A stretch of 64,000 nt of DNA, from the NCBI GenBank assembly GCA_963831815.1, contig CAWHRL010000001.1, positions 135,827-199,826 on the forward strand, given 5' to 3'. Each line of letters begins with the position of its first letter. The stretch's first letter is position 1. Source of the DNA: Vulcanimicrobiota bacterium. Its GTDB lineage: Bacteria; Vulcanimicrobiota; Vulcanimicrobiia; Vulcanimicrobiales; Vulcanimicrobiaceae. Positions 9,250 to 63,529 of this stretch are shown here, piece after piece. The notes under the pieces were generated by a model. The model did not search any database and had not been told where the DNA came from. It saw only the letters and a program-made list of their open reading frames with translations. The position numbers and the translations under genes were made by a program.

Positions 9250-9269
9250 GCCGCAGTTCGGGAGACTAA

Positions 9270-9800
9270 ATGTCGCGTTATCTCGTCTGGGCGGTCGCGG
9301 CGGTGACGTTGGCGATCGCTCTTTTCGTGCTGTGGCCCTTCGTTTCGCCGACAGCGCACTCGAACGGGCCTGAGAGTTTGGCGGGCGAAGCCGCGCCGGT
9401 CTACAGCTTACGCGACGATCGTGGTGCCGCCGTCTCTCTCGACCGGTACCGCGGACGCGTCGTTGTGATGAACCTATGGGCTTCATGGTGTCCGCCGTGC
9501 CGCGCAGAGATGCCCGATCTTCAGCGGCTGGCAAATGCATATGCCCGAAGCGGGCTCTCCATCGTCGGCGTAAACGAAGGCGAGTCACCGCAGCGCGCCC
9601 GTACCTTTGCCGATTCGCTAGGCATTCATTTCCCGATTTGGATCGACAGCGGTCAGCAGTACGGTCGCACATACGCGGCGCTCGGACTACCGACAACCGT
9701 TATTCTCGATCGGCGGGGAGCGGTGGTGCACGGTTACGACGGCGCGCTCACCTTCGCGCAAATGGAGTCGGCGGTCCAGCCGCTGGTCCGGATGCATTGA
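9270..9800 (+). CDS. TlpA/ResA-family thiol-disulfide oxidoreductase (membrane-anchored thioredoxin fold)
   Basis: It has an N-terminal TM helix followed by VVVMNLWASWCPPCRAEMPDLQ (a CxxC motif). Confidence 0.85.
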   Translation: MSRYLVWAVAAVTLAIALFVLWPFVSPTAHSNGPESLAGEAAPVYSLRDDRGAAVSLDRYRGRVVVMNLWASWCPPCRAEMPDLQRLANAYARSGLSIVGVNEGESPQRARTFADSLGIHFPIWIDSGQQYGRTYAALGLPTTVILDRRGAVVHGYDGALTFAQMESAVQPLVRMH

Positions 9801-10768
9801 GTGGGTTGCTCGTGGCCGCGCTGGTCATCGTTGGTGCGGTCGCTCTCGAGATTCTGCTTCCGGGGCAAGCGGTCTATCATGCCGGATGGTACAATGTAGC
9901 GCTCGGTGCGGTAGTCGCGGTCGCGCTTATCGCCGGGCGGCGGCTCTTTCGCCGAGCGACCTCATCGCGCGCGCGGATTGCCGTTGCTGCGGTTGCACTC
10001 GGTGCGGCCATCGCCGGATTCGCGGGCATCGCGAGCGGACTACTGGCACCCGATAATCAAACCGTCATCGGCGCGCCCGGAGCACGCGTCGCCGTGCAAT
10101 CGCTCGGCGTTCTCGCCTTTCCACTCACGTCGACCGACGCCCGGACGAGCGGCTCGGTCACGCTCGTTCGCCCGCTCGGAGGACCAATCGCGATCGGAGA
10201 GCGTGCACGGGATGCGGGTAACTTCATCCTGCGGACGATCTCGCGCAGTGTCGCTTACGTCGAAGCGCGCGATCTGCGAGGGAATCGCTTGACGATCACG
10301 CAGCCGGAAGGCGCGGCGTTTCTGTCGCCCGTGCTGTTGCTCGAACATCGTCAAACGATCGCCGGGATAGATCTTCCTTACGATTCGTTCAACGTTCCGG
10401 CGGCACGGCGAGTCGTCAAAGCGGTCATGTTCACTCCGGCGCAGGCGGCGATGTTGCTGCACGGCGGCGCGAACTCCGGCGAGGCGGCCGTCCTCTTTGC
10501 GGTTGATGACGAGAACGAACGGCCGTTGCCGCACGCGATTGCGCTGAGCGCGGGAGGGCGAGCTGCGCGCGCCGGCGGTCTCTCGTTGCGAGCGGTCGTC
10601 GCTGCGTATCCAGCGGTCGAAGTCGTCGCGGCTCCCAATCTCTTTGCGACGGTCTTTGGGACGCTGCTGATGATTGGCGGCGTAGTCGGTCTACTGACCG
10701 GCGACGATCGCGCGAACGTTTCGCAGCACGATGCTGCCCTGCGACAGCTCGACGCCCTTGGGCGGTAA
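9797..10768 (+). CDS. Hypothetical membrane protein with ResB-like topology (N-terminal TM helices, a periplasmic domain, a C-terminal TM helix)
   Basis: The in-frame TTG at 9797 overlaps the tlpA stop. Hydrophobic helices are LLVAALVIVGAVALEILL, VALGAVVAVALIAG, AVAAVALGAAIAGFAGIA and ATVFGTLLMIGGVVGLL. The earlier part of track ORF 9476.. overlaps tlpA in another frame. The family assignment is tentative. Confidence 0.5.
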   Translation: MSGLLVAALVIVGAVALEILLPGQAVYHAGWYNVALGAVVAVALIAGRRLFRRATSSRARIAVAAVALGAAIAGFAGIASGLLAPDNQTVIGAPGARVAVQSLGVLAFPLTSTDARTSGSVTLVRPLGGPIAIGERARDAGNFILRTISRSVAYVEARDLRGNRLTITQPEGAAFLSPVLLLEHRQTIAGIDLPYDSFNVPAARRVVKAVMFTPAQAAMLLHGGANSGEAAVLFAVDDENERPLPHAIALSAGGRAARAGGLSLRAVVAAYPAVEVVAAPNLFATVFGTLLMIGGVVGLLTGDDRANVSQHDAALRQLDALGR

Positions 10769-18358: not shown

Positions 18359-19642
18359 ATGCTCAGGATGACAGTCCCTTCCCTCAATTTGAAAGCGACG
18401 CTCTTGGGGCTTGCCGCGCTCGGCGCGCTCCCGCTTCTTGCCGGCTGCGGCAGGAAGGCGCCGCCCGCAACGCCACCGCTGATGGTCGACGCCTCACCGG
18501 CGAGCCGTCAGAATATAGCGACGTATCTGCCGCTTGACGGGCAGATCGCCCCGCTCGAGCAATCGACCCTCGCCTTCCAGCAGAACGGCACCATCCTCAA
18601 GATCAACGTCAATATCGGCGACATGGTGCGCAGGGGCCAGTTGCTCGCGACCATAGATCCGCGGACGCTCCAAGCGCAGCTGGCCCAGGCACAAGCGCAA
18701 GCGGTTCAGTTTTCCGCCAGTGCACAGGGCTCCGTGGTTGGATATCCGGTGCAGGTACAGACCAACGAGGCGGCAGTCCAGACCGCGAAGGCTTCACTGG
18801 CGAACGCCAAGCTCGTCTTCGATCAGAACAAGCAGCTCTACAAACAGGGCTACGTCTCTCAAACAACCTTGCAGCAATCGGAGGCAAACTACGTCCAAGC
18901 CCAACAGACGTATAACAACGCTGTCGTGGGCTTGCGTAATAACGCGGTTAGCGCGCAAAACGTCAAGGCACAGCAAGCGCAGGCCGTTTCTGCAGCGGCG
19001 CAGGCACAGTTGCTCTCCACACAGCTTTCGCAGACCTATCTCTACGCGCCGTACGACGCGGTCGTAGCGAATCGTCTCGTCGATCCCGGCGCATTTGCCT
19101 CTCCGTCGCAGCCGGTTCTCCAGGTTGCCCGCGTCGACAAGGTTTGGATCAACGTCAACGTGCCGGATGAAGATCTGTCCTACGTTCACCCTGGAATCTT
19201 TGTTACGTACCAGTCGAACTCGTTGCCGGGACGTACGTTTAGCGGTCCGGTGCAAACGGTCAACTTGGTTCCGACGGCCGGCACGCTATCGTATCTCGCG
19301 CGGCTGCAGGTGCAGAACCCCGGCTTCGTTTTGCGCGGTGGGATGCTCGTCACCGTGACGGTGACCAAGGCTCGCGCCGCCAATGCGGTGGTCGTACCGC
19401 GCAGCGCGGTGGCCCAGACGCCGAGCGGCGGCAACGTCGTTTACATCGTCGCCGACAACAAGGCACAGGCCGTTCCGGTTCGCGTCGGCGTCCAAACGGA
19501 CACGTTGTCGCAAGTCATCAGTCCGCGGATTGCGCCGGGAACGATGGTGGTAACGACCCGGCCGGACGCGCTCAAGGACGGAAGCGTCGTTGCCGTGAGC
19601 AATGGGAACGCGCCGCCGGCCTCGAACGGCACGGTTCACTGA
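18359..19642 (+). CDS. Efflux transporter periplasmic adaptor subunit (MFP/HlyD family)
   Basis: It has a lipoprotein-like signal (LLAGCG), a long Gln/Ala-rich coiled-coil hairpin, and barrel motifs (APYDAVVANRLVDPGAF, VWINVNVPDEDL). Confidence 0.85.
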   Translation: MLRMTVPSLNLKATLLGLAALGALPLLAGCGRKAPPATPPLMVDASPASRQNIATYLPLDGQIAPLEQSTLAFQQNGTILKINVNIGDMVRRGQLLATIDPRTLQAQLAQAQAQAVQFSASAQGSVVGYPVQVQTNEAAVQTAKASLANAKLVFDQNKQLYKQGYVSQTTLQQSEANYVQAQQTYNNAVVGLRNNAVSAQNVKAQQAQAVSAAAQAQLLSTQLSQTYLYAPYDAVVANRLVDPGAFASPSQPVLQVARVDKVWINVNVPDEDLSYVHPGIFVTYQSNSLPGRTFSGPVQTVNLVPTAGTLSYLARLQVQNPGFVLRGGMLVTVTVTKARAANAVVVPRSAVAQTPSGGNVVYIVADNKAQAVPVRVGVQTDTLSQVISPRIAPGTMVVTTRPDALKDGSVVAVSNGNAPPASNGTVH

Positions 19643-29313: not shown

Positions 29314-30705
29314 ATGCTTCGCGAACCGATCGAACGCCTGATCCGAGATCCCAAAGAGCTCACGCGTGAGGTGAGTTTTCCGGATCCGGCGCAAATCCGC
29401 ATCTACGACGAGACGCTGCGCGACGGCGAACAGATGCCGGGCGTCTGCTACACGCCGGCGCAGAAACTGGAGATCGCCAAAGTCTTAGCCGGGGTTGGCG
29501 TTCACGTGATGAGCGTCGGCTTCCCGGCCGCGTCGGAGGGCGACCGCCGCACGCTGCAGCTGGTCATGGGGGCGAAACGCCGCGGCGAGCTCGGCGATGT
29601 CGAGATCGTCGTGATGTGCCGCAGCAATCGCGGCGACATCGACGTGACGGTCAAGACGTTGCGCGATGCCGGGGTCGATCCCAGCGAGGTGACGTTCTTC
29701 ATCTTTACCAGCGGAAGCGATCTCCACCTAAAATACAAGATCGGCAAAACGCTGCTGCGCTATGAGGGACGGGAGGAGCGAGAATGGCTCGAGCTGCCGC
29801 TCTCATTCTATCGCGACGCCAACATCCGCTTGCAGTGCGATGCGATTGCGCACGCCCGCGGATGCGGAATCGATCGAATCGAATTCGGCGCGGAGGACGG
29901 GAGCCGCGGCGACGTCGACTACTTCGTCGAATATTTCAAAGCAGGTCTAGAAGCGGGCGGGACTCGCCCCGCGTGGCCGGACACGGTCGGCACGCTGACG
30001 CCCGAAGCGACTCGCTGGTACTGCTCGCGTATCGTCAAAGCGCTGCCCGAGGGGTTGCCGATCGTCGCGCACCTGCACAACGATTACGGACTCGGCACGA
30101 TCAACGCGATAACGGCGACGTCGTGCGGCTTCAAAGTCATCTCGGTGACGGCGAACGGATACGGCGAGCGTGCCGGTAACGTAAAGCTCCACGAGTTCGT
30201 CGTCGCGCTGCGCGTGCTCTATGGCATCGAGCTGCCGGGCTTCAAGTACGGCAAGTTGCGCGAGCTGGCGCGCTTCATGGAACGTATCAGCGGCATTCCG
30301 CTGCAACAGCACGAGCCGATCGTTGGTGCGAAAGTCTTCGCGCACGAATCGGGGATTCACACCCAGGCGATGTTGATCGACCACCGCATGTACGAAGCGG
30401 TCCCCGCAGAGCTGGTCGGCGGAGTGACCAGCTGGGTCTTCGGCAAACATACGGGAGCCGCGCTGGTTGAAGATACGCTTCGACGGCAGCGCGAGCGCTT
30501 GGCGCGCGCCGGAGTCGAGCCGACGACGGAGCTGGCACATCGCGTGACCGACGAAGTGAAACGCCTGCGCGAAGAGCGCGCTGCGTCGAGCACGAGCGAA
30601 GAGGCGATCGAGCTTTACGAAGTTGCAATGCGACGGCTCTCACTCAACGAAGACGACGTCGTCGAAATCGCCATCGCGTTGGGCACCCCGGCCAAAGCCT
30701 CATAA
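29314..30705 (+). CDS. HMGL-like aldolase of the 2-isopropylmalate / homocitrate / citramalate synthase family
   Basis: IRIYDETLRDGEQMPGV, HLHNDYGLGTINAITA and ANGYGERAGN are family signatures. The exact substrate is not resolvable by eye. Confidence 0.85.
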   Translation: MLREPIERLIRDPKELTREVSFPDPAQIRIYDETLRDGEQMPGVCYTPAQKLEIAKVLAGVGVHVMSVGFPAASEGDRRTLQLVMGAKRRGELGDVEIVVMCRSNRGDIDVTVKTLRDAGVDPSEVTFFIFTSGSDLHLKYKIGKTLLRYEGREEREWLELPLSFYRDANIRLQCDAIAHARGCGIDRIEFGAEDGSRGDVDYFVEYFKAGLEAGGTRPAWPDTVGTLTPEATRWYCSRIVKALPEGLPIVAHLHNDYGLGTINAITATSCGFKVISVTANGYGERAGNVKLHEFVVALRVLYGIELPGFKYGKLRELARFMERISGIPLQQHEPIVGAKVFAHESGIHTQAMLIDHRMYEAVPAELVGGVTSWVFGKHTGAALVEDTLRRQRERLARAGVEPTTELAHRVTDEVKRLREERAASSTSEEAIELYEVAMRRLSLNEDDVVEIAIALGTPAKAS

Positions 30706-30740: not shown

Positions 30741-30763
30741 GTCACCCTGAGCGTAGTCGAAGG
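30741..30763. repeat. Dispersed core motif copy a (GTCACCCTGAGCGTAGTCGAAGG)
   Basis: It matches the five other copies at 32104, 45880, 60708, 61102 and 61195 directly, in either orientation. Confidence 0.85.
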
Positions 30764-31269: not shown

Positions 31270-32104
31270 AAGCCAAGGCTGCCGAGACGCCAGGTGGCGA
31301 CGAAGGCTTTGAAGACGAACCGGAAAGCTATCGTGCGTAAAGCGTACGCTGCGCGCGCCGGTTCGCTCGAAGCCGGGAATCGTTGCGACTAGGTGCGCTT
31401 GGGCGGCGGTGACGAGCTGCACGTCAAGCGTTAGCGGCGGCTCGAAGCGATAGGGCTTGGCCTGCGGTGGCGTGCTCTCACCGCCTCTTCGGGCGGCGCT
31501 GCCGAATCGCGCGCTGCGCGGATGCCGGCGTCATCGAGTTGGCGGCGAAATTACCGATCGATTCCTTGACCGACCACGCCGCACACCCAGGGCATCTGCG
31601 CTTGCACGCCTTCGACGGTCGTTCGGTCGCCGCTGACGAGCAAGAGCGGGACGCCGTAGTATCCCAGCAGAGCCCGCGTTGATGGTCGCCTCGCTGCAGC
31701 GGATCGCCGTTAATGCGGACCTCGTAGATGACCGACGGCGTGTACGTATGGCACAAAACGGCGTCGGCGTCGCCGGCGGCGCCATGGTATCCGACGAAGA
31801 ATGCGCCGTCGAATCCGCCGTCGGCATCTTGCACCATCGAGAACGGTTTGCGGTTGCCGAAGATGACGCGCACGTCCGCCGGCAGCTCGTCGAGCAAGAA
31901 GATTGCGCATCGGTCCGTGCGAGTCGTTGACGAGCACCTCAGTGGCACCGCCGGCGCGCGCGCCTTCGATCGCGCCGACGACCTCTTGGGTGTAGTACCG
32001 GCGGAAGATCGCATAGTCCGGATGTGGTGTGCGAGCGTCGACTTGTTGCCAAGCGCAGACGCCTGCCACGCCCTCCATGTCGCTCGAAATGTATAGCTTC
32101 ATCC
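31270..32104 (-). pseudogene. Degraded tandem duplicate of the M55 D-aminopeptidase (DppA-family) gene
   Basis: It starts MKLYISSDMEGVAGVCAWQQ...VNDSHGPMRNLL (frame 1). It then continues as LLDELPADVRVIFGNRKPFSMVQ...FFVGYHGAAGD...VRINGDP (frame 2), CSEATINAGSAG (frame 3), VKESIGNFAANSMTPASAQRAI and IPGFERTGARSVRF. Each segment is collinear with the intact copy at 32151..32984. Confidence 0.78.
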
Positions 32105-32126
32105 TTCGACTACGCTCAGGATGACA
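32104..32126. repeat. Dispersed core motif copy b (reverse orientation; CCTTCGACTACGCTCAGGATGAC)
   Basis: Its reverse complement, GTCATCCTGAGCGTAGTCGAAGG, differs from copy a at one position. It lies between the intact and degraded M55 genes. Confidence 0.85.
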
Positions 32127-32150
32127 CGACTCCGCCCATGGTGACACAAC

Positions 32151-32984
32151 TCACGCGATTGGGTCGGCGGCGGCGGCGATGCGCGTTGCGGCGATGAAGG
32201 CTCGAAGCAGCGGCGGGTACTGGTCGCACGCAAAGCGGACCGTGCGGCCGCCGATTCGATCGAAGCCCGGCATTAGTTCGATGAAATCGGCGTGTTCGAC
32301 GCCGGCGGTTTCGATGGTTAGCTCGAACGGAGGATCGAAAACGAATGGTTTTGCCGTGGCGATGCGTCCCATGGCCTCGCGCGCGCCGGCATGGATCGCC
32401 TCGCGCGCCGCTTGCGGCGTCAGTGAATTTACCGCCGAGAACCCGATCGCGTCTTTCACGGCAACGCCGACGGCCCACGGCATCGCACGCGCAGCCTCCT
32501 TGACGATGACGCTATCGCCGGTGACGAGCACGACCGGGACGCCGTGACTTCCGGCCAACGCAGCGTTGAGCAGTGCCTCGCTGCATGGAACGCCGTTGAC
32601 CGCGACGGAGTAGATCGATCCGCTGAACGTGTGCGAGAGCGTCGCGCAGTCGCCCGCCTTGGCGTGGTACCCGGTGAAGAATACCGCATCGGCCGGTGCG
32701 TCGAAGCCTTGCATCATGCTCCACGGCTTGGGAGCGCCCGAGATCACCCGAAGGTCGTCGTCACCGGGTAGTTCGTCGAGCAGCAAATTACGCATCGACC
32801 AGTGCGAGTCGTTGACGACCATTTCGCGCGCGCCGCCCTCTCGCGCGCCCTCGATGGCAGCCCGAACCTCGCCGGTCATATGGCGCCGGAAGATCGGATA
32901 TTCGTGGTCGTCGCTCGGATCGCACTGCTTCCACGAGCAGACGCCGGCAGTTCCTTCCATGTCGCACGAAATGTAGATATTCAC
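32151..32984 (-). CDS. D-aminopeptidase, peptidase family M55 (DppA-like), intact copy
   Basis: MNIYISCDMEGTAGVCSW...VNDSHWSMRNLL...FFTGYHAKAGD...VVLVTGD. The ORF is 277 aa, full length. Confidence 0.88.
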   Translation of the reverse strand: MNIYISCDMEGTAGVCSWKQCDPSDDHEYPIFRRHMTGEVRAAIEGAREGGAREMVVNDSHWSMRNLLLDELPGDDDLRVISGAPKPWSMMQGFDAPADAVFFTGYHAKAGDCATLSHTFSGSIYSVAVNGVPCSEALLNAALAGSHGVPVVLVTGDSVIVKEAARAMPWAVGVAVKDAIGFSAVNSLTPQAAREAIHAGAREAMGRIATAKPFVFDPPFELTIETAGVEHADFIELMPGFDRIGGRTVRFACDQYPPLLRAFIAATRIAAAADPIA

Positions 32985-45796: not shown

Positions 45797-45825
45797 GAGA
45801 AACTCCGCGCGGCGGGCCGCGCCAA

Positions 45826-46023
45826 CTCCCTCAGTGTCGAGCTTTAGCACTGCACAACTCAGGTCCCGTTCCCTTCCGCGTCACGCCGAGCGGAGTCGAA
45901 GGGCGAAGGGCCAGCCGCATTAGATTTCGCCTTGATTCGGCGGAGTCTGGTCACCCGTTGGGGTCTCTCGACCTTTCCGGGTAGCGGCATTTCTTCATGC
46001 AGACGCCTCACCTAACGAGGAAT
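45826..46023 (-). promoter_or_regulatory. M-box (ykoK leader) Mg2+-sensing riboswitch aptamer
   Basis: The minus-strand RNA reads CCUCGUUAGGUGAGGCGUCUGCAUGAAGAAAUGCCGCUACCCGGAAAGGUCGAGAGACCCCAACGGGUGACCAGACUCCGCCGAAUCAAGGCGAAAUCUAAUGCGGCUGG...CAGUGCUAAAGCUCGACACUGAGGGAG. This reproduces the conserved M-box blocks as I recall them from the B. subtilis mgtE leader: GUUAGGUGAGGC, CUGCCC..AAA.GUC.A.AGAC.C.AA.GGGU.A.CAG, AAGGUGA...UAAUGC.GCUGG and CAGUGCUAAAGCUC. Confidence 0.9.
45880..45903. repeat. Dispersed core motif copy c (GTCACGCCGAGCGGAGTCGAAGGG), embedded in a peripheral helix of the M-box
   Basis: It matches the other five copies directly. It lies between the UAAUGCGGCUGG and CAGUGCUAAAGC blocks of the riboswitch. 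Confidence 0.75.
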
Positions 46024-46082
46024 CCTTAACCAGGATACTCCCGGCCGAGGCTTTGTCAACCCCAAGTCGCGAACTGCTCGTC

Positions 46083-60045: not shown

Positions 60046-60621
60046 ATGATTAGCCATCTGGGCACGTCTCTGCGCGTAACGATCGTTTCAGTGATTCTGT
60101 TGGGGCTGATCTACCCGCTGGTGATGACCGTGCTCGCGCAGGTGATCTTTCCGCGGCAAGCCGAGGGCTCACCCGTTACGATCGACGGCAGGACGGTCGG
60201 CTCCGCCATCATCGGCCAGCTTTGGAGAAAACCGCAGTACTTTCATGGCCGGCCGTCGGCCGCCGGCAAAGGTTACGATCCCACCGCGACTGGCGGAACG
60301 AATTTGGGGCCGACGTCGAAAAAGCTGATCGATTCGACCAGAGCGACGATCGCCGCGCTGGAGAAGGAGAATCCCGATGCGAGCGGCTTGCCGCCAATGG
60401 ATTTAATAACCTCCGGCGGCAGCGGCATCGACCCGGACATCACGCCGGAGGCGGCGTACTGGCAAGCGCCGCGCGTCGCGAAGGCGCGGCAAATGAGCCT
60501 TGCGGCGGTTCGAGCGCTCGTAGGACGGCACGTGCGAGGTAGAACGTTCGGCTTTCTAGGCGAGCCGCGCGTCAACGTGCTCGAGATTAACCTCGCCCTG
60601 GACGGATTACAGCCGCAATAG
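60046..60621 (+). CDS. kdpC: K+-transporting ATPase subunit C
   Basis: It has an N-terminal TM helix, then FHGRPSAAG.GYDPTATGGTNLGP and ITSGGSGIDPDITPEAA, typical of KdpC. Confidence 0.93.
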   Translation: MISHLGTSLRVTIVSVILLGLIYPLVMTVLAQVIFPRQAEGSPVTIDGRTVGSAIIGQLWRKPQYFHGRPSAAGKGYDPTATGGTNLGPTSKKLIDSTRATIAALEKENPDASGLPPMDLITSGGSGIDPDITPEAAYWQAPRVAKARQMSLAAVRALVGRHVRGRTFGFLGEPRVNVLEINLALDGLQPQ

Positions 60622-60658
60622 CCTAACGTTCTATCCGGTCTCGCCAACGGCGGTTCTT

Positions 60659-60712
60659 GTCAAAGGCAGTGTGGCGGTCAAGTAGCCGATCAGGTGTTAA
60701 AGGCAGTGTCAC
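60659..60712. repeat. Left inverted-repeat arm of the GIY-YIG cassette
   Basis: The reverse complement is GTGACACTGCCTTTAACACCTGATCGGCTACTTGACCGCCACACTGCCTTTGAC. The right-hand unit is GTGACACTGCCTTTGACG...GCTGACCGGCTACTTGAGGGTGACACTGCCTTTG. Confidence 0.7.
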
Positions 60713-60730
60713 CTGAGCGGAGTCGAAGGG
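60708..60730. repeat. Dispersed core motif copy d (GTCACCTGAGCGGAGTCGAAGGG) inside a 9-bp-stem hairpin
   Basis: It is flanked by GGCAGTGTC ... GACACTGCC inverted arms. It matches the other copies. Confidence 0.85.
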
Positions 60731-60782
60731 CGACACTGCCCTCCTCTTGCGCTCCACTTGCTGCCGCGCAGAATGCACAGCG

Positions 60783-61217
60783 ATGAAGACTTACTACGTC
60801 TACATGCTGCTCTGCGCCGACGGATCATTCTACGTTGGAATTACAAACAATCTTGAGCTGCGGATCGGGCAGCATCAGTTTGGGATCGATCCCCGATGCT
60901 ATACGTTCAAGCGCCGGCCGTTTAAGCTCGTCCACTCATCAGACTTCCATAACGTGGACGAGGCGATCGGTTGGGAGAAGCAGCTCAAAGGTTGGTCCCG
61001 CGCCAAGAAACTTGCGCTAATCGGGAGTGACTGGAAGCTGATCCACGAACTTGCTGAATGCTCCAATCAAACCGCTGCGAGGTTTTACTCGCCCGTGTCG
61101 TCCTTCGACTCCGCTCAGGATGACACGGGCGTGGTTCGCGCTCGAGACGACGAAGTTTATCCCGAGCAAAGACGAGGGGGTCAGGGTGACACTGCCCTTC
61201 GACTCCGTTCAGGGTGA
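60783..61217 (+). CDS. GIY-YIG nuclease superfamily protein (small YhbQ/UPF0213-like type), with its C-terminal tail encoded by repeat DNA
   Basis: MKTYYVYMLLCADGSFYVGITNNLELRIGQHQ...YTFKRRPFKLVHSSDFHNVDEAIGWEKQLKGWSRAKK is the GIY-(10-11)-YVG motif with the R and E core. The tail ...SSFDSAQDDTG...GDTALRLRSG is translated from repeat copies e and f, so the true stop may be functionally irrelevant. Confidence 0.8.
   Translation: MKTYYVYMLLCADGSFYVGITNNLELRIGQHQFGIDPRCYTFKRRPFKLVHSSDFHNVDEAIGWEKQLKGWSRAKKLALIGSDWKLIHELAECSNQTAARFYSPVSSFDSAQDDTGVVRARDDEVYPEQRRGGQGDTALRLRSG
61102..61124. repeat. Dispersed core motif copy e (CCTTCGACTCCGCTCAGGATGAC), hairpin-flanked
   Basis: It is flanked by GCCCGTGTC ... 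GACACGGGC inverted arms, in reverse orientation relative to copies a, c and d. Confidence 0.85.
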
Positions 61218-61218
61218 C
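61195..61218. repeat. Dispersed core motif copy f (CCCTTCGACTCCGTTCAGGGTGAC)
   Basis: It matches the other copies directly. It is flanked by direct GGGTGACACTGCC copies and leads into the tandem array. Confidence 0.8.
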
Positions 61219-61405
61219 ACTGCCTTTGACGACGCCCGCTTTGACGGCTGACCGGCTACTCGAGGGTGACACTGCCTTTGACGACGCCCGCTTTGACGGC
61301 TGACCGGCTACTCGAGGGCGACACTGCCTTTGACGACGCCCGCTTTGACGGCTGACCGGCTACTTGAGGGTGACACTGCCTTTGGCGGCTGACCCGCTAC
61401 TCGTC
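61212..61405. repeat. Tandem repeat with a 52-bp unit, three full copies plus a shortened fourth
   Basis: GGGTGACACTGCC recurs at 61212, 61264, 61316 (one G>C change) and 61368. The unit is GGGTGACACTGCCTTTGACGACGCCCGCTTTGACGGCTGACCGGCTACTCGA. The last unit lacks the internal CTTTGACG duplication and overlaps the stop of the kdpD-like ORF. Confidence 0.92.
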
Positions 61406-63529
61406 GGAGATGACGGAGGCGTCTGTTGCATTGCCGGGTGGTTGAAGAACGAGCAGTTCGCGAGCTCCGGCGTCGAGCAATCTGCGCGGAAATGCCGGAC
61501 GCTGCGGCCAACGTGAAGCATGTTGCGGACCCGCTACCGCAATCGTCGTTTCGGGACGCGACCGCGCCACGTCGAGCAATGCTTTCGGCACGTCTTCGGC
61601 AACGAGTTCGATCCACTCCGTGTTGGTCTTACGCGCTTCGGCCCGGAGCTTTTCGACGATTACGGAATCCACTTTTTCGCGCGGCGCGTTGACGTGAGCG
61701 ATCGCAAACTCAATCGCAAGACGCGCCGCGACTTTGCCCGCGCGCGCGACCATGGTGAGATCGACCTCGCGCGAACCGACTGCCAGCAGAATTCGCTCGA
61801 AGGGCGACGTTATTCGTTCGCGGTGGCGAGCGCGGAGCGCCTCGCGGAGTGCAAGCTCGCGCAGTGCGAAGAGATTTTCCGTGCGAAAGAAATTCGCGAG
61901 CGCCGCTTCGCAGCGTTCGGGCGGATAGATCTTTCCGTCGCGCAACCTCTGGCGTAGCGTCTCGGGCGTGACGTCGATGAGGATCACCTCGTCGGCGAGC
62001 GTCAGGATTCCGTCGGGCAGCGTTTCCCGGACGATCGTTCCGGTCAGCCGCAAGACCGTGTCGCCCAAACCTTCGAGATGTTGGACGTTGAGCGTCGTTA
62101 TCACGTCGATGCCCGCGCGGAGAACGGCCAGCACGTCGTAGAAGCGCTTGGGTGCAATCGAGCCCGGCGCGTTAGTATGCGCGAGCTCGTCGATCAACGC
62201 GACCTGAGGCTTTCGCGCGATAAGCGCATCGCGGTCGAATTCGCGGTAGGTCATACCGTTGACCGCGACGACCTTCGGCGGGATGACCTCCAAACCGTCG
62301 AGCAACGCCGCCGTTTCCTTCCGCCCATGTGTTTCGACGAAGCCCACCACAACGTCGATGCCATCCGCGCGAAGCTGGTGCGCGCGATCGAGCATCGCGT
62401 AAGTCTTTCCCGCTCCGGCGGCGGCGCCGATGTAGACGGTGAGCCTTCCGTAACCTACGCGCAGACGGTCCCCGGCGGTTTGCGAGTACGGCGAGCGCAC
62501 CGGATTCGCACCTAGATACGTTTGACCCGCGCCGACAATGAAAAGGTCGTACGGAAGCGGCAAGTTGGCGAGCTTCGCCGCAATTCGACCGTGGGGAAGC
62601 GCCACGAGCGACGCCCGTAGCGCGTCGCCGGGCAAACTTGACGGATCGAATGTTTCGTGGAGCATCTCGCCGCCCAGGTCGCGGCTGATGCGCTCGAGCG
62701 ACGCGCGATCTACGCCCGCAACCGCAACCACCTCGAGTCCAAGGTCGAGAGCCTGTGCGATCGCCGCCGTCCGCTTGAGGTACGCGATCTGATCGACGTT
62801 GGGGTAGACGAAGGCGGCCGCCATGGAGGTGCGGCCGTCCCTTACCGCCGGGAGCGTGAGGCTATCCACGGTGCGCAGCAGCAGCTCGCGGAGCATGTAG
62901 AGCGTCTGCTCTTTGAAGATTCCGTTTAGCGCACGCTCGATGTCCGCCTCGTTAACGATCTTCCCGGCCCTTACGCGGCTCTGGAGCAGGCGGGGCGAAA
63001 CGTCGAGCGCTACGACCTCGTCAGCGGCTTGCAGAAACGAGAGCGGGATGATTTCCCGCACCGGGAAGCCGATGAGCGACTCGACCGCCGGCGCCACGTT
63101 TTCGAGATGCTGAATGTTGAAGGCGCCGATGACTCCGATGCCGTGGTTCTTTAGCGCGAGCGCGTCTTGCCAGCGCTTCGCGTTCGTCGAATCGCCCAGA
63201 TTGTCGTGTGCGAGCTCGTCGAGAACGACGACGTCGGGCTTTTCGCGCAGCGCGGCCTCGTAATCGAAGTCCTCGAAGACGCGTTCCCCGAGCGTGACCC
63301 GCCGCGGCGCAATGCGAGGCAATCCCGCGGCTATGCGCTCGAGCTCCGGACGTCCCTTCGTCTCAATCCATCCGATGGCCACGCGTTTGCCGTCCGCAGC
63401 AAGGCGCCGCGCGTCTTCGAGCAGCCGTCGAGTCTTACCGGAACCGGGGGCGCTGGCGACATAAACGACGAGTCGCGGGCGACCGCCGATTTCGCGCAGC
63501 AGCTCTTCCGCTCGCGCCGTGCGATCCAT
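61397..63529 (-). CDS. KdpD-like sensor lacking TM and kinase domains: two tandem KdpD-N-terminal plus USP-like modules
   Basis: Module 1 has VVYVASAPGSGKT...GWIETKGRPE...VLDELAHDN...FNIQHLE. Module 2 has TVYIGAAAGAGKT...GFVETHGRKE...LIDELAHTN...LNVQHLE. Each is followed by a USP-like segment. No hydrophobic helices and no HisKA or HATPase motifs are visible. Confidence 0.85.
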   Translation of the reverse strand: MDRTARAEELLREIGGRPRLVVYVASAPGSGKTRRLLEDARRLAADGKRVAIGWIETKGRPELERIAAGLPRIAPRRVTLGERVFEDFDYEAALREKPDVVVLDELAHDNLGDSTNAKRWQDALALKNHGIGVIGAFNIQHLENVAPAVESLIGFPVREIIPLSFLQAADEVVALDVSPRLLQSRVRAGKIVNEADIERALNGIFKEQTLYMLRELLLRTVDSLTLPAVRDGRTSMAAAFVYPNVDQIAYLKRTAAIAQALDLGLEVVAVAGVDRASLERISRDLGGEMLHETFDPSSLPGDALRASLVALPHGRIAAKLANLPLPYDLFIVGAGQTYLGANPVRSPYSQTAGDRLRVGYGRLTVYIGAAAGAGKTYAMLDRAHQLRADGIDVVVGFVETHGRKETAALLDGLEVIPPKVVAVNGMTYREFDRDALIARKPQVALIDELAHTNAPGSIAPKRFYDVLAVLRAGIDVITTLNVQHLEGLGDTVLRLTGTIVRETLPDGILTLADEVILIDVTPETLRQRLRDGKIYPPERCEAALANFFRTENLFALRELALREALRARHRERITSPFERILLAVGSREVDLTMVARAGKVAARLAIEFAIAHVNAPREKVDSVIVEKLRAEARKTNTEWIELVAEDVPKALLDVARSRPETTIAVAGPQHASRWPQRPAFPRRLLDAGARELLVLQPPGNATDASVISDE

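Follow-up and report, generated by a model that had tools for sequence, protein, structure and literature searches.

To our knowledge, the REP/REPIN-RAYT system is so far the only well-described family of short bacterial repeats that has a dedicated enzyme of its own. In this system, also referred to as REPtron or REPIN-RAYT (Nunvar et al. 2010, PMC2817692; Bertels & Rainey 2011, PMC3116915), the enzyme is an HUH tyrosine transposase related to IS200/IS605, the repeats have a GT(A/G)G or CGTC head, and the RAYTs were first described from a proteobacterial range. Small stand-alone GIY-YIG proteins such as BH0048 (PDB 1zg2) and EF2693 (PDB 1ywl) are of the UPF0213/COG2827 type, the prokaryotic 'Slx1 family' of Dunin-Horkawicz et al. 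2006 (PMC1564403), a paper in which repeats are not mentioned. No repeat association of UPF0213/COG2827 proteins is reported in the searchable sources, and the searchable literature, whose reach leaves out most subscription-journal papers, holds no description of an association between a GIY-YIG protein and a repeat.

Here, we analysed a window of bacterial DNA (the whole stretch, 64,000 nucleotides), in which kdpC (60046..60621, + strand; stop codon at 60619-60621; Pfam PF02669 KdpC, E=1.6e-67) and a KdpD-N-like sensor gene (61397..63529, - strand; two PF02702 domains in Pfam) form the left and right host flanks of a 775-bp gap. The gap contains an ORF with a 101-aa GIY-YIG core, a + hairpin upstream of it, inverted - copies downstream of it and a 52-bp tandem array; all the kdpC-kdpD elements listed in an initial annotation of this DNA were found again in our re-analysis. 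The synteny of kdpC is kept in the relatives L001, L020 and L200-L203. We consider it fairly probable (roughly 60%) that this cassette is a member of a widespread and undescribed partnership between a REP-like hairpin repeat and a minimal, stand-alone UPF0213/Slx1-like GIY-YIG nuclease.

The GIY-YIG ORF spans from the ATG at 60783 to the stop codon at 61217 on the + strand; a start at TTG 60747 was not borne out, the homologues conserving ATG 60783 instead. Its conserved core (60783..61085) is a single UPF0213/Slx1-like domain of 101 aa. The GIY-YIG match (PF01541, E=1.1e-17; 64.6 bits against a cut-off of 22.6) is the sole Pfam match of the protein and covers amino acids 4-76 and profile positions 2-76 of 78. 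The remaining tail (61086..61217, + strand) is unconserved, translated repeat: it is encoded by the downstream repeats, with its TGA stop codon inside a repeat copy (GGGTGACA), and the ORFs of homologues commonly terminate within the first downstream repeat (..PSTSSG, then stop). Compared with the solved UPF0213 members, the protein matched PDB 1zg2 (E=1.9e-13) and 1ywl (E=9.6e-11). An AF2 model (pLDDT 88, pTM 0.76) consists of one GIY-YIG domain and one helix, for which Foldseek returned 1zg2, 1ywl and then Slx1 in this order, with UvrC-N also matched. No second domain (NUMOD, helix-turn-helix or zinc finger) was detected in the Pfam search or in the AF2 model, and neither NCBIfam nor PADLOC gave the protein a name or a defence-system match. 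Among 40 homologues, Y17, R27, H31 and E65 are invariant and Y7 is conserved in at least 90%, while among 76 homologues Y7, Y17, R27, H31 and E65 are each conserved in at least 95%. The gene is under purifying selection, with a dN/dS of 0.04-0.12, and the minimal GIY-YIG nuclease family comprises about 8,000 clusters at 50% identity.

The repeat accompanying this gene was characterized over 79 loci, which were picked by protein similarity alone, and has the consensus TGTCAnnCTGAGC-loop-GTCGAAGnnTGACA. Its parts are a TGTCA head on the 5' side, a short stem with covarying positions and a middle that is conserved but non-complementary (GAGC-N2/3 or nested insert-GTCGA). In the window, the upstream hairpin (60702..60740, + strand; core 60708-60736; inverted repeats I13 and I5) has the sequence GGCAGTGTCACC/TGAGCGGAGTCGAAG/GGCGACACTGCC, a DNA folding energy of -11.1 kcal/mol (z -2.7) and identical counterparts in L001 and L020. 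The downstream hairpin (61090..61131, - strand; core 61097-61124; inverted repeats I5/I12), which is the inverted counterpart of the upstream one (25 nt, 96% complementary), folds as DNA at -17.2 kcal/mol (z -5.3) and is conserved in the same two relatives. It is followed by a second - core copy with half-sites on its flanks (61181..61227; repeats D2 and D4, motif scan), the core of which was located at 61196-61213. The core motif CCTGAGCGGAGTCGAAGG occurs six times in the window at ≤3 mismatches, compared with 0.1 expected from shuffles. Judged from the aligned loci, the stem shows compensatory changes: its covariation score is 0.32, versus 0.10 for shuffles (0/500) and at most 0.14 for slid controls, and at stem columns 12-31 and 13-30, 29 cells each were changed on both sides.

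A promoter-like module, TTGCGC-16 nt-CAGAAT (60747..60774, + strand), ends 8 nt before the ATG. In most Eremiobacterota loci, the pattern cTTGCC/cTAGCC ... gCGCAGAnt is found at a constant distance from the start codon. A sigma-70 consensus scan called no promoter, and it is by conservation that this putative module is recognized. Its presence suggests that the cassette may carry its own promoter, and the 8-nt spacing would imply a leaderless mRNA.

At the right of the gap, a tandem array of 3.3 x 52 bp (61211..61384, - strand; TRF score 334, 97% identity) extends to about 3.7 copies if a partial fourth unit to 61410 is included. The latter part (61380..61410; the fourth copy of D3, 84%) corresponds, in the alignment with the empty sites, to the native terminus of the host spacer, which continues into the KdpD-like stop codon (61397-61399). 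In each 52-bp unit, a 16-nt half-site AGGGTGACACTGCCTTT is joined to about 36 nt that duplicate the host spacer between kdpC and kdpD, including the kdpD-like stop codon, and the unit matches the empty-site spacer of L200. The left arm (60650..60712; I1-I4), 75-82% complementary to 61239-61401 and 77-82% to the 52-bp units, is an inverted copy of the unit with a 14-nt deletion; it is made up of a half-site and of sequence that can be assigned to the host because the empty site of L200 shows that very spacer. The host spacer at this locus has been duplicated in tandem and once inverted. The array is absent in L020 and shorter in L001, and the 52-bp unit was found at the kdp locus only, in the window and one close relative. 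Given this single-locus occurrence and its composition of half-site and host spacer, we rejected the unit as a dispersed element or a family-wide terminal repeat. The inverted repeats of about 50 nt that the initial annotation saw bounding the cassette are thus present here, as a local duplication of half-site and host spacer, but they are not the ends of the family; the conserved ends are the ~28-40-nt hairpins adjoining the ORF, not the 50-nt arms.

Across the 79 loci, the density of the repeat at up to 250 bp from the gene is 100-200 times that found more than 2 kb away. The + half-sites reach 6-7 per kb at -250..0 and the - half-sites 10.4 per kb at +1..+100, against a background of 0.02-0.09 per kb at distances over 2 kb. 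In 59/72 loci, a + copy precedes the gene and a - copy follows it, and in a motif-free test the two flanks shared an exact inverted repeat of ≥12 nt in 57/72 loci versus 7/345 controls. The downstream - orientation also persists (81 vs 37 sites) if the following gene is oriented like the nuclease gene, which led us to reject neighbouring transcription as the only determinant of the orientation of the flanking arrays. The arrangement of gene and hairpin occurs in Eremiobacterota, Acidobacteriota, Bacteroidota, Leptospiraceae, Saccharibacteria and Pseudomonadota, cultured isolates included, and the pairing spans at least six bacterial phyla. The co-occurrence of repeats and GIY-YIG genes that had been envisaged from the window is therefore strong and of fixed geometry across phyla. 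Moreover, repeat subtype tracks protein similarity, protein distance being smaller within a subtype than between subtypes (0/5000 and 30/5000 permutations; the effect is small and the permutations ignore relatedness). Paralogues of one chromosome carry different subtypes (e.g. L003 vs L007), and solo copies nearby share their subtype with the cassette of the locus (Fisher p = 0.0055). Subtypes were assigned with the cleaner of two schemes; the first, cruder one gave no signal in the closest 32 loci.

The repeat is also dispersed away from the gene. Four solo copies lie in the window: one at 30741..30763 (+), 36 nt past the stop of the + gene 29314-30705; one at 32103..32125 (-), 26 nt past the stop of the - gene 32151-32984; a half-site GCTCAGGATGACA at 18361..18372 (-); and a core copy at 45885..45902 (+), within a 45-nt insert in a hairpin loop of the M-box riboswitch. 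Among 123 perfect hairpins in metagenome contigs, 9 (7%) are within 400 bp of the gene and 114 are not. Solo copies are mostly intergenic, just past gene 3' ends, either single or as inverted doublets. GIY-YIG is the only recurrent non-housekeeping neighbour of the metagenomic hairpins, beside which neither HUH enzymes nor other transposases recur. In Sphingomonas parapaucimobilis YK209, nine records together contain at least 150 inverted doublets, and a single gene was detected; over 50 kb of this strain annotated with PGAP, 12/13 copies are intergenic, mostly as inverted doublets. Thus, the further copies of the core motif anticipated in the initial annotation are numerous, in metagenomes as well as in YK209. 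One solo site, beside a tRNA gene, is polymorphic among relatives. Neither a target-site duplication nor a known transposase was recognized at the cassette or the solo copies, and no defined insertion junction was identified at the latter. A general inverted duplication of target flanks at solo copies was considered but found no support, 1-2 extra complementary base pairs being all that was seen.

The cassette resembles REP/RAYT in many respects. In both, a nuclease ORF lies between two inverted repeats, with a repeat at or directly after the stop codon; the repeat combines a conserved head with an imperfect palindrome, which shows compensatory changes and has a middle that is not complementary; extragenic copies number in the hundreds, many of them paired as inverted doublets or grouped in clusters; the gene is passed on vertically under purifying selection; and enzyme and repeat types co-vary, here with a small effect in which relatedness is not controlled. 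In contrast to REP/RAYT, the enzyme here is a GIY-YIG protein of ~100 aa (Slx1/UPF0213-like), the repeat head is TGTCA, the gene is flanked by long polar arrays in which full sites and half-sites occur, genomes commonly have several paralogues, and at least six phyla are involved. Since GIY-YIG is the sole Pfam match and there is no HUH enzyme, the cassette is not a member of REP/RAYT and only works like one; with a GIY-YIG enzyme instead of an HUH tyrosine transposase, its chemistry cannot be that of RAYT.

The protein shares with the UPF0213/COG2827 proteins the single-domain architecture, the fold, a significant degree of sequence similarity (E = 1.9e-13) and the catalytic Tyr, Tyr, Arg and Glu. 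Unlike BH0048 and EF2693, which have no assigned substrate, the present subfamily displays an EKQLKGWSRxKK motif that is nearly invariant, as well as a C-terminal helix. Slx1-Slx4 (PDB 7cq2, 6seh, 4xlg) has the GIY-YIG fold and is the next-best structural match, the likeness being structural only (E about 1e-2). Eukaryotic Slx1-Slx4 recognizes the structure of branched and hairpin-like DNA and cuts it accordingly, and an activity of this type is proposed for the present nuclease; unlike the latter, Slx1 has a RING/PHD domain, needs Slx4 and has no cognate repeat family. Homing enzymes, found in phages, introns or organelles, have a long C-terminal, sequence-specific DNA-binding region. Their free-standing GIY-YIG genes (I-TevI, T4 Seg proteins) share with the cassette the catalytic domain, a fixed intergenic site that is either occupied or empty and a promoter of their own (here putative), whereas the present nuclease lacks such a region, is chromosomal and is bracketed by a dispersed repeat. 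IS200/IS605 and MITEs likewise have structure-recognized hairpin ends and short, non-autonomous intergenic derivatives, but the ends of IS200/IS605 are not inverted repeats and its enzyme is an HUH transposase.

The reading of this locus as REP/RAYT-like, with GIY-YIG in place of HUH, had already been offered in the initial annotation. Its association, geometry and dispersal are upheld by the data above, and we infer that the nuclease may bind, cleave and disseminate the repeat, that is, mobilize it. The unit would be laid out as one or more + hairpins, its own promoter, the nuclease ORF with its 3' end and stop codon in the first repeat, and one or more - hairpins. The nuclease would recognize the extruded or single-stranded hairpin via the conserved loop and head and nick it, which would parallel the cutting of branched DNA by Slx1. 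Repair of the nick by break repair, template switching or unequal exchange would then leave repeats copied, inverted and amplified, preferentially near the gene, and such a model would explain why arrays are polar, copies nested and host spacer duplicated, and how the cassette could be inverted in place. As far as we know, GIY-YIG nucleases do not become covalently linked to DNA in an intermediate, and a cut-and-rejoin cycle as in RAYT should therefore not be taken for granted. More tentatively, at slightly less than an even chance, the minimal GIY-YIG family may be the cognate enzyme of phylum-spanning REP-like repeats and form with them a second, mechanistically independent repeat-plus-nuclease replicator, which would spread through hairpin nicking and repair copying and possibly through insertion into existing hairpin loops.

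The kdpC-kdpD spacer is filled in ten genomes (the window, L001-L004, L006, L008, L020, L021 and L203) and empty in L200, L201 and L202; the empty spacers are free of repeats, which occur there only alongside the gene. The cassette is found in both orientations at this site, and repeat number varies among kdp-locus genes that are 93-94% identical. The comparison of this junction among relatives, proposed from the window, has thus revealed empty sites, copy-number variation and inversion, and the repeats evidently turn over. Together with the non-monophyly of the kdp-locus genes in a neighbour-joining tree, the occurrence of two paralogues in different contexts in each of seven genomes, the five tandem gene copies in L055 and the putative promoter inside the unit, these observations would also fit an autonomous selfish cassette, in which hairpin-promoter-GIY-YIG-hairpin is itself mobile like an IS or a free-standing homing-endonuclease-like gene, targets hairpins or palindromic spacers at gene 3' ends, and gives rise to solo repeats as decayed ends or MITE-like derivatives. 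Indeed, multiple paralogues and tandem gene copies are more reminiscent of a selfish, autonomous element than of a single-copy gene that has been domesticated. However, the gene has been retained at the kdp locus in species so far apart that dS is saturated, at a dN/dS of about 0.05-0.1; one gene stands against at least 150 doublets in Sphingomonas; and the nuclease has no homing-type DNA-binding domain. Both partners are, moreover, very rare or absent on phages and plasmids, which were rejected as carriers of the cassette: the repeat had 0 matches in 2.9 million viral contigs, and the protein was found in 5/50,697 phage records, all weak matches (36-40% identity), and in 5/72,556 plasmid records, of which one examined closely (Sphingomonas) is a chromosome piece with rpsD, topA and hisG. 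We regard this explanation, which overlaps the main one and differs from it chiefly in the beneficiary and the moving part, as unlikely.

In Sphingomonas, whose protein is WP_347092679.1, the gene sits operon-like between nrdR and an RNA methyltransferase gene. This placement, the Slx1-like fold, the strong purifying selection and the vertical inheritance would be expected of a host maintenance or regulatory protein, namely a housekeeping nuclease or binder that processes or protects hairpins and cruciforms while the repeats spread by other means, the copies at its own gene being auto-regulatory. Such a role, which we hold to be improbable, leaves unexplained the strict inverted geometry, the growth of arrays adjacent to the gene, the repeat-free empty sites and the coupling of paralogue and subtype within genomes, and no other candidate mobilizing enzyme recurs beside the repeats.

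An RNA-level element is more improbable still. In this case, the hairpins would be 3'-UTR stem-loops that stabilize or terminate mRNAs, and the GIY-YIG protein would be an RNA-binding or RNA-cleaving factor, in line with the role in RNA metabolism about which Dunin-Horkawicz et al. 2006 (PMC1564403) speculate for prokaryotic Slx1-like proteins. The solo copies do lie 0-150 nt past stop codons with a modest sense bias (about 26 vs 9, counted by eye; 28 vs 17 in an independent set). On the contrary, the upstream copies of the cassette precede the promoter-like module and the downstream copies are antisense to the cassette mRNA, G·U-type pairs in the stem are about equally frequent on either strand, and no T-tracts were found after the hairpins. 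Nor did Rfam contain a family matching the repeat in the window or in ten related loci, either with the gathering threshold applied or with E values up to 10 allowed, chance matches to miRNA models being the only ones. Finally, a coincidental accumulation of the repeats together with a small gene in intergenic spacers that are convergent and permissive, with the upstream neighbour co-directional in 66/74 loci and the downstream one convergent in about 60%, has hardly any probability in view of the 100-200-fold local enrichment with fixed polarity across phyla, the persistence of this polarity beside non-convergent downstream genes and the repeat-free empty kdp spacers.

The partnership between the hairpin repeat and the GIY-YIG nuclease, which remains our preferred reading, is directly testable, since cultured carriers exist (among them Sphingomonas parapaucimobilis YK209, Dyadobacter sp. 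32 and Chishuiella changwenlii DSM 27989). If true, it would explain why the repeat breaks metagenome assemblies, 50/123 hairpin sites being within 600 bp of a contig end, and why gene calls are polluted by peptides such as SFDSAQDD and PSTSSG. It would also provide a small nuclease (about 100 aa), possibly structure- and sequence-specific, with a defined candidate DNA target, and would suggest a substrate for the UPF0213/Slx1-like stand-alone GIY-YIG proteins of unknown function. Overall, a second such system built on an unrelated nuclease fold would mean that this type of partnership between a repeat and its enzyme has evolved more than once.

The 775-bp gap between kdpC, which ends at 60621 (+ strand) and forms the left host flank, and a convergent KdpD-like gene (61397-63529, - strand, stop side at 61397) contains a GIY-YIG ORF on the + strand, running from an ATG at 60783 to a stop at 61217. 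The first 76 residues of its product match the Pfam GIY-YIG domain (E=1.1e-17). The conserved part of this ORF is bracketed by a hairpin in '+' orientation upstream (60702-60740; ssDNA fold -11 kcal/mol, z -2.7) and its inverted counterpart '-' downstream (61090-61131; -17 kcal/mol, z -5.3), whose 25-nt arms are 96% complementary. A further core copy lies at 61196, downstream of the conserved part, followed by 3.3 copies of a 52-bp tandem unit (61211-61384, 97% identity), to which a left arm at 60650-60712 is 77-82% complementary. In the window as a whole, the 18-nt core is found six times, where 0.1 copies would be expected. This layout, including a left arm that is the reverse complement of the 52-bp unit, had been described in the initial annotation, and all of its parts (ORF, hairpins, core copies and 52-bp array) were recovered here. 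The KdpD-like protein itself comprises two tandem KdpD N-terminal sensor domains without a kinase domain, and in relatives (kdp-locus relative L200, 4628-8576) a HisKA/HATPase_c kinase and a response regulator are separate genes adjoining the KdpD-like gene; the KdpD sensor thus appears to be split into separate genes.

The window protein has an exact match in a Candidatus Cybelea (Eremiobacterota) metagenome-assembled genome, and a scan of one genome per species with this protein as the sole query yielded 79 loci. At nearly all of them, the gene is adjoined by a repeat of the form TGTCA-nn-CTGAGC-(2-3 nt or nested insert)-GTCGAAG-nn-TGACA. Across these protein-selected loci, '+' half-sites reach 6-7 per kb within 250 bp upstream of the gene and '-' half-sites 10.4 per kb over the 100 bp directly downstream, compared with a half-site density of 0.02-0.09 per kb more than 2 kb away. 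The co-occurrence of repeat and GIY-YIG gene, which the initial annotation had proposed testing, thus held at nearly all loci, mostly with the same flank geometry ('+' upstream with '-' downstream in 59 of 72 loci). A motif-free test likewise detected exact inverted repeats (12 nt or longer) shared by the two flanks in 57 of 72 loci versus 7 of 345 control positions. The carriers (Eremiobacterota, Acidobacteriota, Bacteroidota, Leptospiraceae, Saccharibacteria and Pseudomonadota) include complete isolate genomes, indicating that the association is not an assembly artefact. At many loci the reading frame closes inside the first downstream repeat, which supplies the TGA.

The upstream neighbour is co-directional with the GIY-YIG gene in 66 of 74 loci and the downstream neighbour is often convergent; array polarity as a mere by-product of such neighbours is ruled out, because the downstream array is still mostly '-' (81 versus 37 sites) where the downstream neighbour is co-directional, so that the mirror arrangement is a property of the cassette itself. 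In most Eremiobacterota loci, a conserved promoter-like module (cTTGCC-about 17 nt-CAGAnT) separates the last upstream hairpin from the start codon and ends ~8 nt before the latter. It may act as an internal promoter that gives a leaderless mRNA, a reading kept provisional because a sigma consensus scan did not call the module. A Bacteroidales MAG (L055, 10001-12363) carries the gene plus repeats in five tandem copies with a period of ~500 bp, each matching the query at exactly the same level of identity, and the kdp locus of L008 has very long polar arrays, with ~640 bp of '+' repeats upstream of the gene (9263-9905) and ~340 bp of '-' repeats downstream (10307-10644).

The repeat is a structured element. 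Among 62 hairpins from loci chosen without regard to the repeat, two variable stem positions stay paired through two-sided changes (CG/UA/GC and CG/AU/GC/UA), and the stem covariation score was 0.32, compared with 0.10 for shuffles (0 of 500 reached the observed value) and at most 0.14 for slid partners. G·U-type pairs are about equally frequent on both strands of these hairpins, giving no sign of an RNA-only constraint, and the 5' TGTCA head is retained even without its 3' partner.

As for the protein, Y17, R27, H31 and E65 are invariant and Y7 nearly so (≥90%) in 40 homologues, all five are each ≥95% conserved in 76 homologues, and an EKQLKGWSRxKK motif is likewise conserved. dN/dS among the kdp-locus gene copies is 0.04-0.12. 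An AF2 model (pLDDT 88) shows a single GIY-YIG domain and a C-terminal helix, with the function-unknown UPF0213 proteins 1zg2 and 1ywl as nearest structures and Slx1 next. Slx1 is a structure-specific nuclease that acts on branched DNA. Clustered at 50% identity, the family numbers 8,132 clusters when matches with E up to 1e-3 are counted and 1,254 at the stricter limit of 1e-10. A published classification (Dunin-Horkawicz et al. 2006, PMC1564403) agrees with the UPF0213/Slx1 placement and does not mention repeats.

Ten genomes carry the cassette at the junction of kdpC and the KdpD-like gene. It shares the strand of kdpC in the window, L001 and L020 and is inverted in L002-L004, L006, L008, L021 and L203. 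Empty junctions, for which the initial annotation had proposed looking, do exist: L200 and L201 (KdpC 92% identical to that of the window) have a 51-nt spacer, L202 (83%) has none, and no repeat is present at any of the three. The three closest genomes all retain the hairpin-promoter-gene-hairpin core; extra repeats outside it come to ~250 bp in the window and ~75 bp in L001, and L020 has none. In L020, a 1-nt deletion breaks the frame of the closest GIY-YIG orthologue (10001-10302, 94% identical), which is a pseudogene unless the deletion is a long-read assembly error. Outside its half-site, the window's 52-bp unit matches the empty-site spacer; each unit therefore consists of a 16-nt half-site and ~36 nt duplicated from the host spacer, with the KdpD-like stop codon among them, and the left arm is the same unit in inverted form. 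Accordingly, the ~50-nt inverted arms first reported are real, but they are composed of half-site and duplicated host DNA, and the 52-bp unit was found in our data at the kdp locus only. Host DNA duplicated along with half-sites, in tandem as well as inverted, looks unlike a product of classical transposition; break-induced unequal exchange, fold-back copying, or inversion between the inverted repeats on either side are the more likely routes. A low-resolution neighbour-joining tree does not place the kdp-locus genes in a single clade, so that repeated insertion or replacement by paralogues is possible.

A second site, an orthologous gene-end/tRNA spacer, was compared at L021 3513-3530, L003/L004 about 3630, L008 3043 and L001/L020 about 16400. 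Two lineages carry different full repeat copies there, three genomes have a plain GC-rich hairpin with no repeat, and one has the repeat core inside the loop of a GC-rich, terminator-like hairpin, which suggests repeat turnover, possibly by insertion into hairpin loops. In the window, an M-box (Mg2+) riboswitch (45823-46026, - strand; 121.6 bits) has a 45-nt insert (~45865-45910) replacing the model's 7-nt hairpin loop, and this insert holds the repeat core (45885-45902). Together with nested repeat copies, these two cases hint that existing hairpin loops may be preferred landing sites.

Away from the gene, 123 perfect hairpins were sampled from metagenome contigs. Among the matches listed, 9 of the 123 (7%) have a member gene of the GIY-YIG family no more than 400 bp away, far above chance, yet most repeat copies are solo; this family is the sole recurrent non-housekeeping neighbour, and no recurrent transposase lies beside the repeats. 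Fifty of these 123 sites (loci L080-L199, among the matches listed) are no more than 600 bp from a contig end, as is usual for a multi-copy repeat, and short-read metagenome assemblies seem to break at it often. Solo repeats tend to follow stop codons at a distance of 0-150 nt and modestly favour the sense orientation (about 26 versus 9 by eye; 28 versus 17 in an independent set), and the exact pattern has no copy in 2.9 million viral contigs. One solo copy in the window separates a DppA-like (D-aminopeptidase family) gene (32151-32984, - strand) from its frameshifted, apparently decayed paralogue (31478-32147, - strand). In Sphingomonas parapaucimobilis YK209, only one gene of the family was detected (E up to 1e-8); the 89-nt inverted doublet that precedes it is present in at least 150 copies, spread over nine records of the strain, and is absent from every other record of the collection. 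In a 50-kb PGAP-annotated stretch of this strain, 12 of 13 copies are intergenic and most are inverted doublets 50-70 bp apart, a layout like that of REPINs. On L205 (NZ_CP155752.1 271000-320999), the GIY-YIG gene of this strain follows nrdR and shares 4 nt with the beginning of an RNA methyltransferase gene; the record is labelled 'plasmid', although rpsD, topA, hisG/hisD, glyA, nusB and murI mark it as a chromosome piece.

Enzyme and repeat also vary together. Three loop subtypes (N2, N3 and nested) can be told apart among the flanking repeats, and proteins of the same subtype are more alike than those of different subtypes (difference reached in 0 of 5000 permutations for all loci and 30 of 5000 within Eremiobacterota), a small effect in statistics that ignore kinship. 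Paralogues on the same chromosome differ in subtype, such as L003 (N3) and L007 (N2) on OY970335.1, and solo copies at distances above 1.5 kb tend to match the subtype of the local cassette (17:5 versus 1:6, Fisher p = 0.0055).

Rfam holds no family matching the repeat, NCBIfam and PADLOC hold no model for the protein, and no publication linking GIY-YIG proteins to REP-like repeats was found in literature outside subscription-only journals; we thus found no earlier description of the pairing in these databases or the openly searchable literature. All arrangement-level features defining RAYT-REP units (Nunvar et al. 2010, PMC2817692) have a counterpart here: flanking repeats in inverted orientation, a repeat at the stop codon of the ORF, a repeat built of head, palindrome and non-complementary middle, compensatory changes, enzyme-repeat congruence and clustering. 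The sole exception among the features compared is the enzyme class, and the cassette is therefore not a REP/RAYT member, in keeping with the initial annotation of a REP/RAYT-like arrangement around a GIY-YIG enzyme. The main rival explanation treats the entire cassette as an autonomous selfish element, with the solo repeats as decayed remnants of its ends. We favour a direct functional link between enzyme and repeat, with a probability of about 0.6, and place less confidence in true dissemination of the repeats by the enzyme. The GIY-YIG cassette most likely functions like a REP/RAYT system, in which the nuclease would nick its cognate hairpin and subsequent repair would copy or rearrange the repeats.
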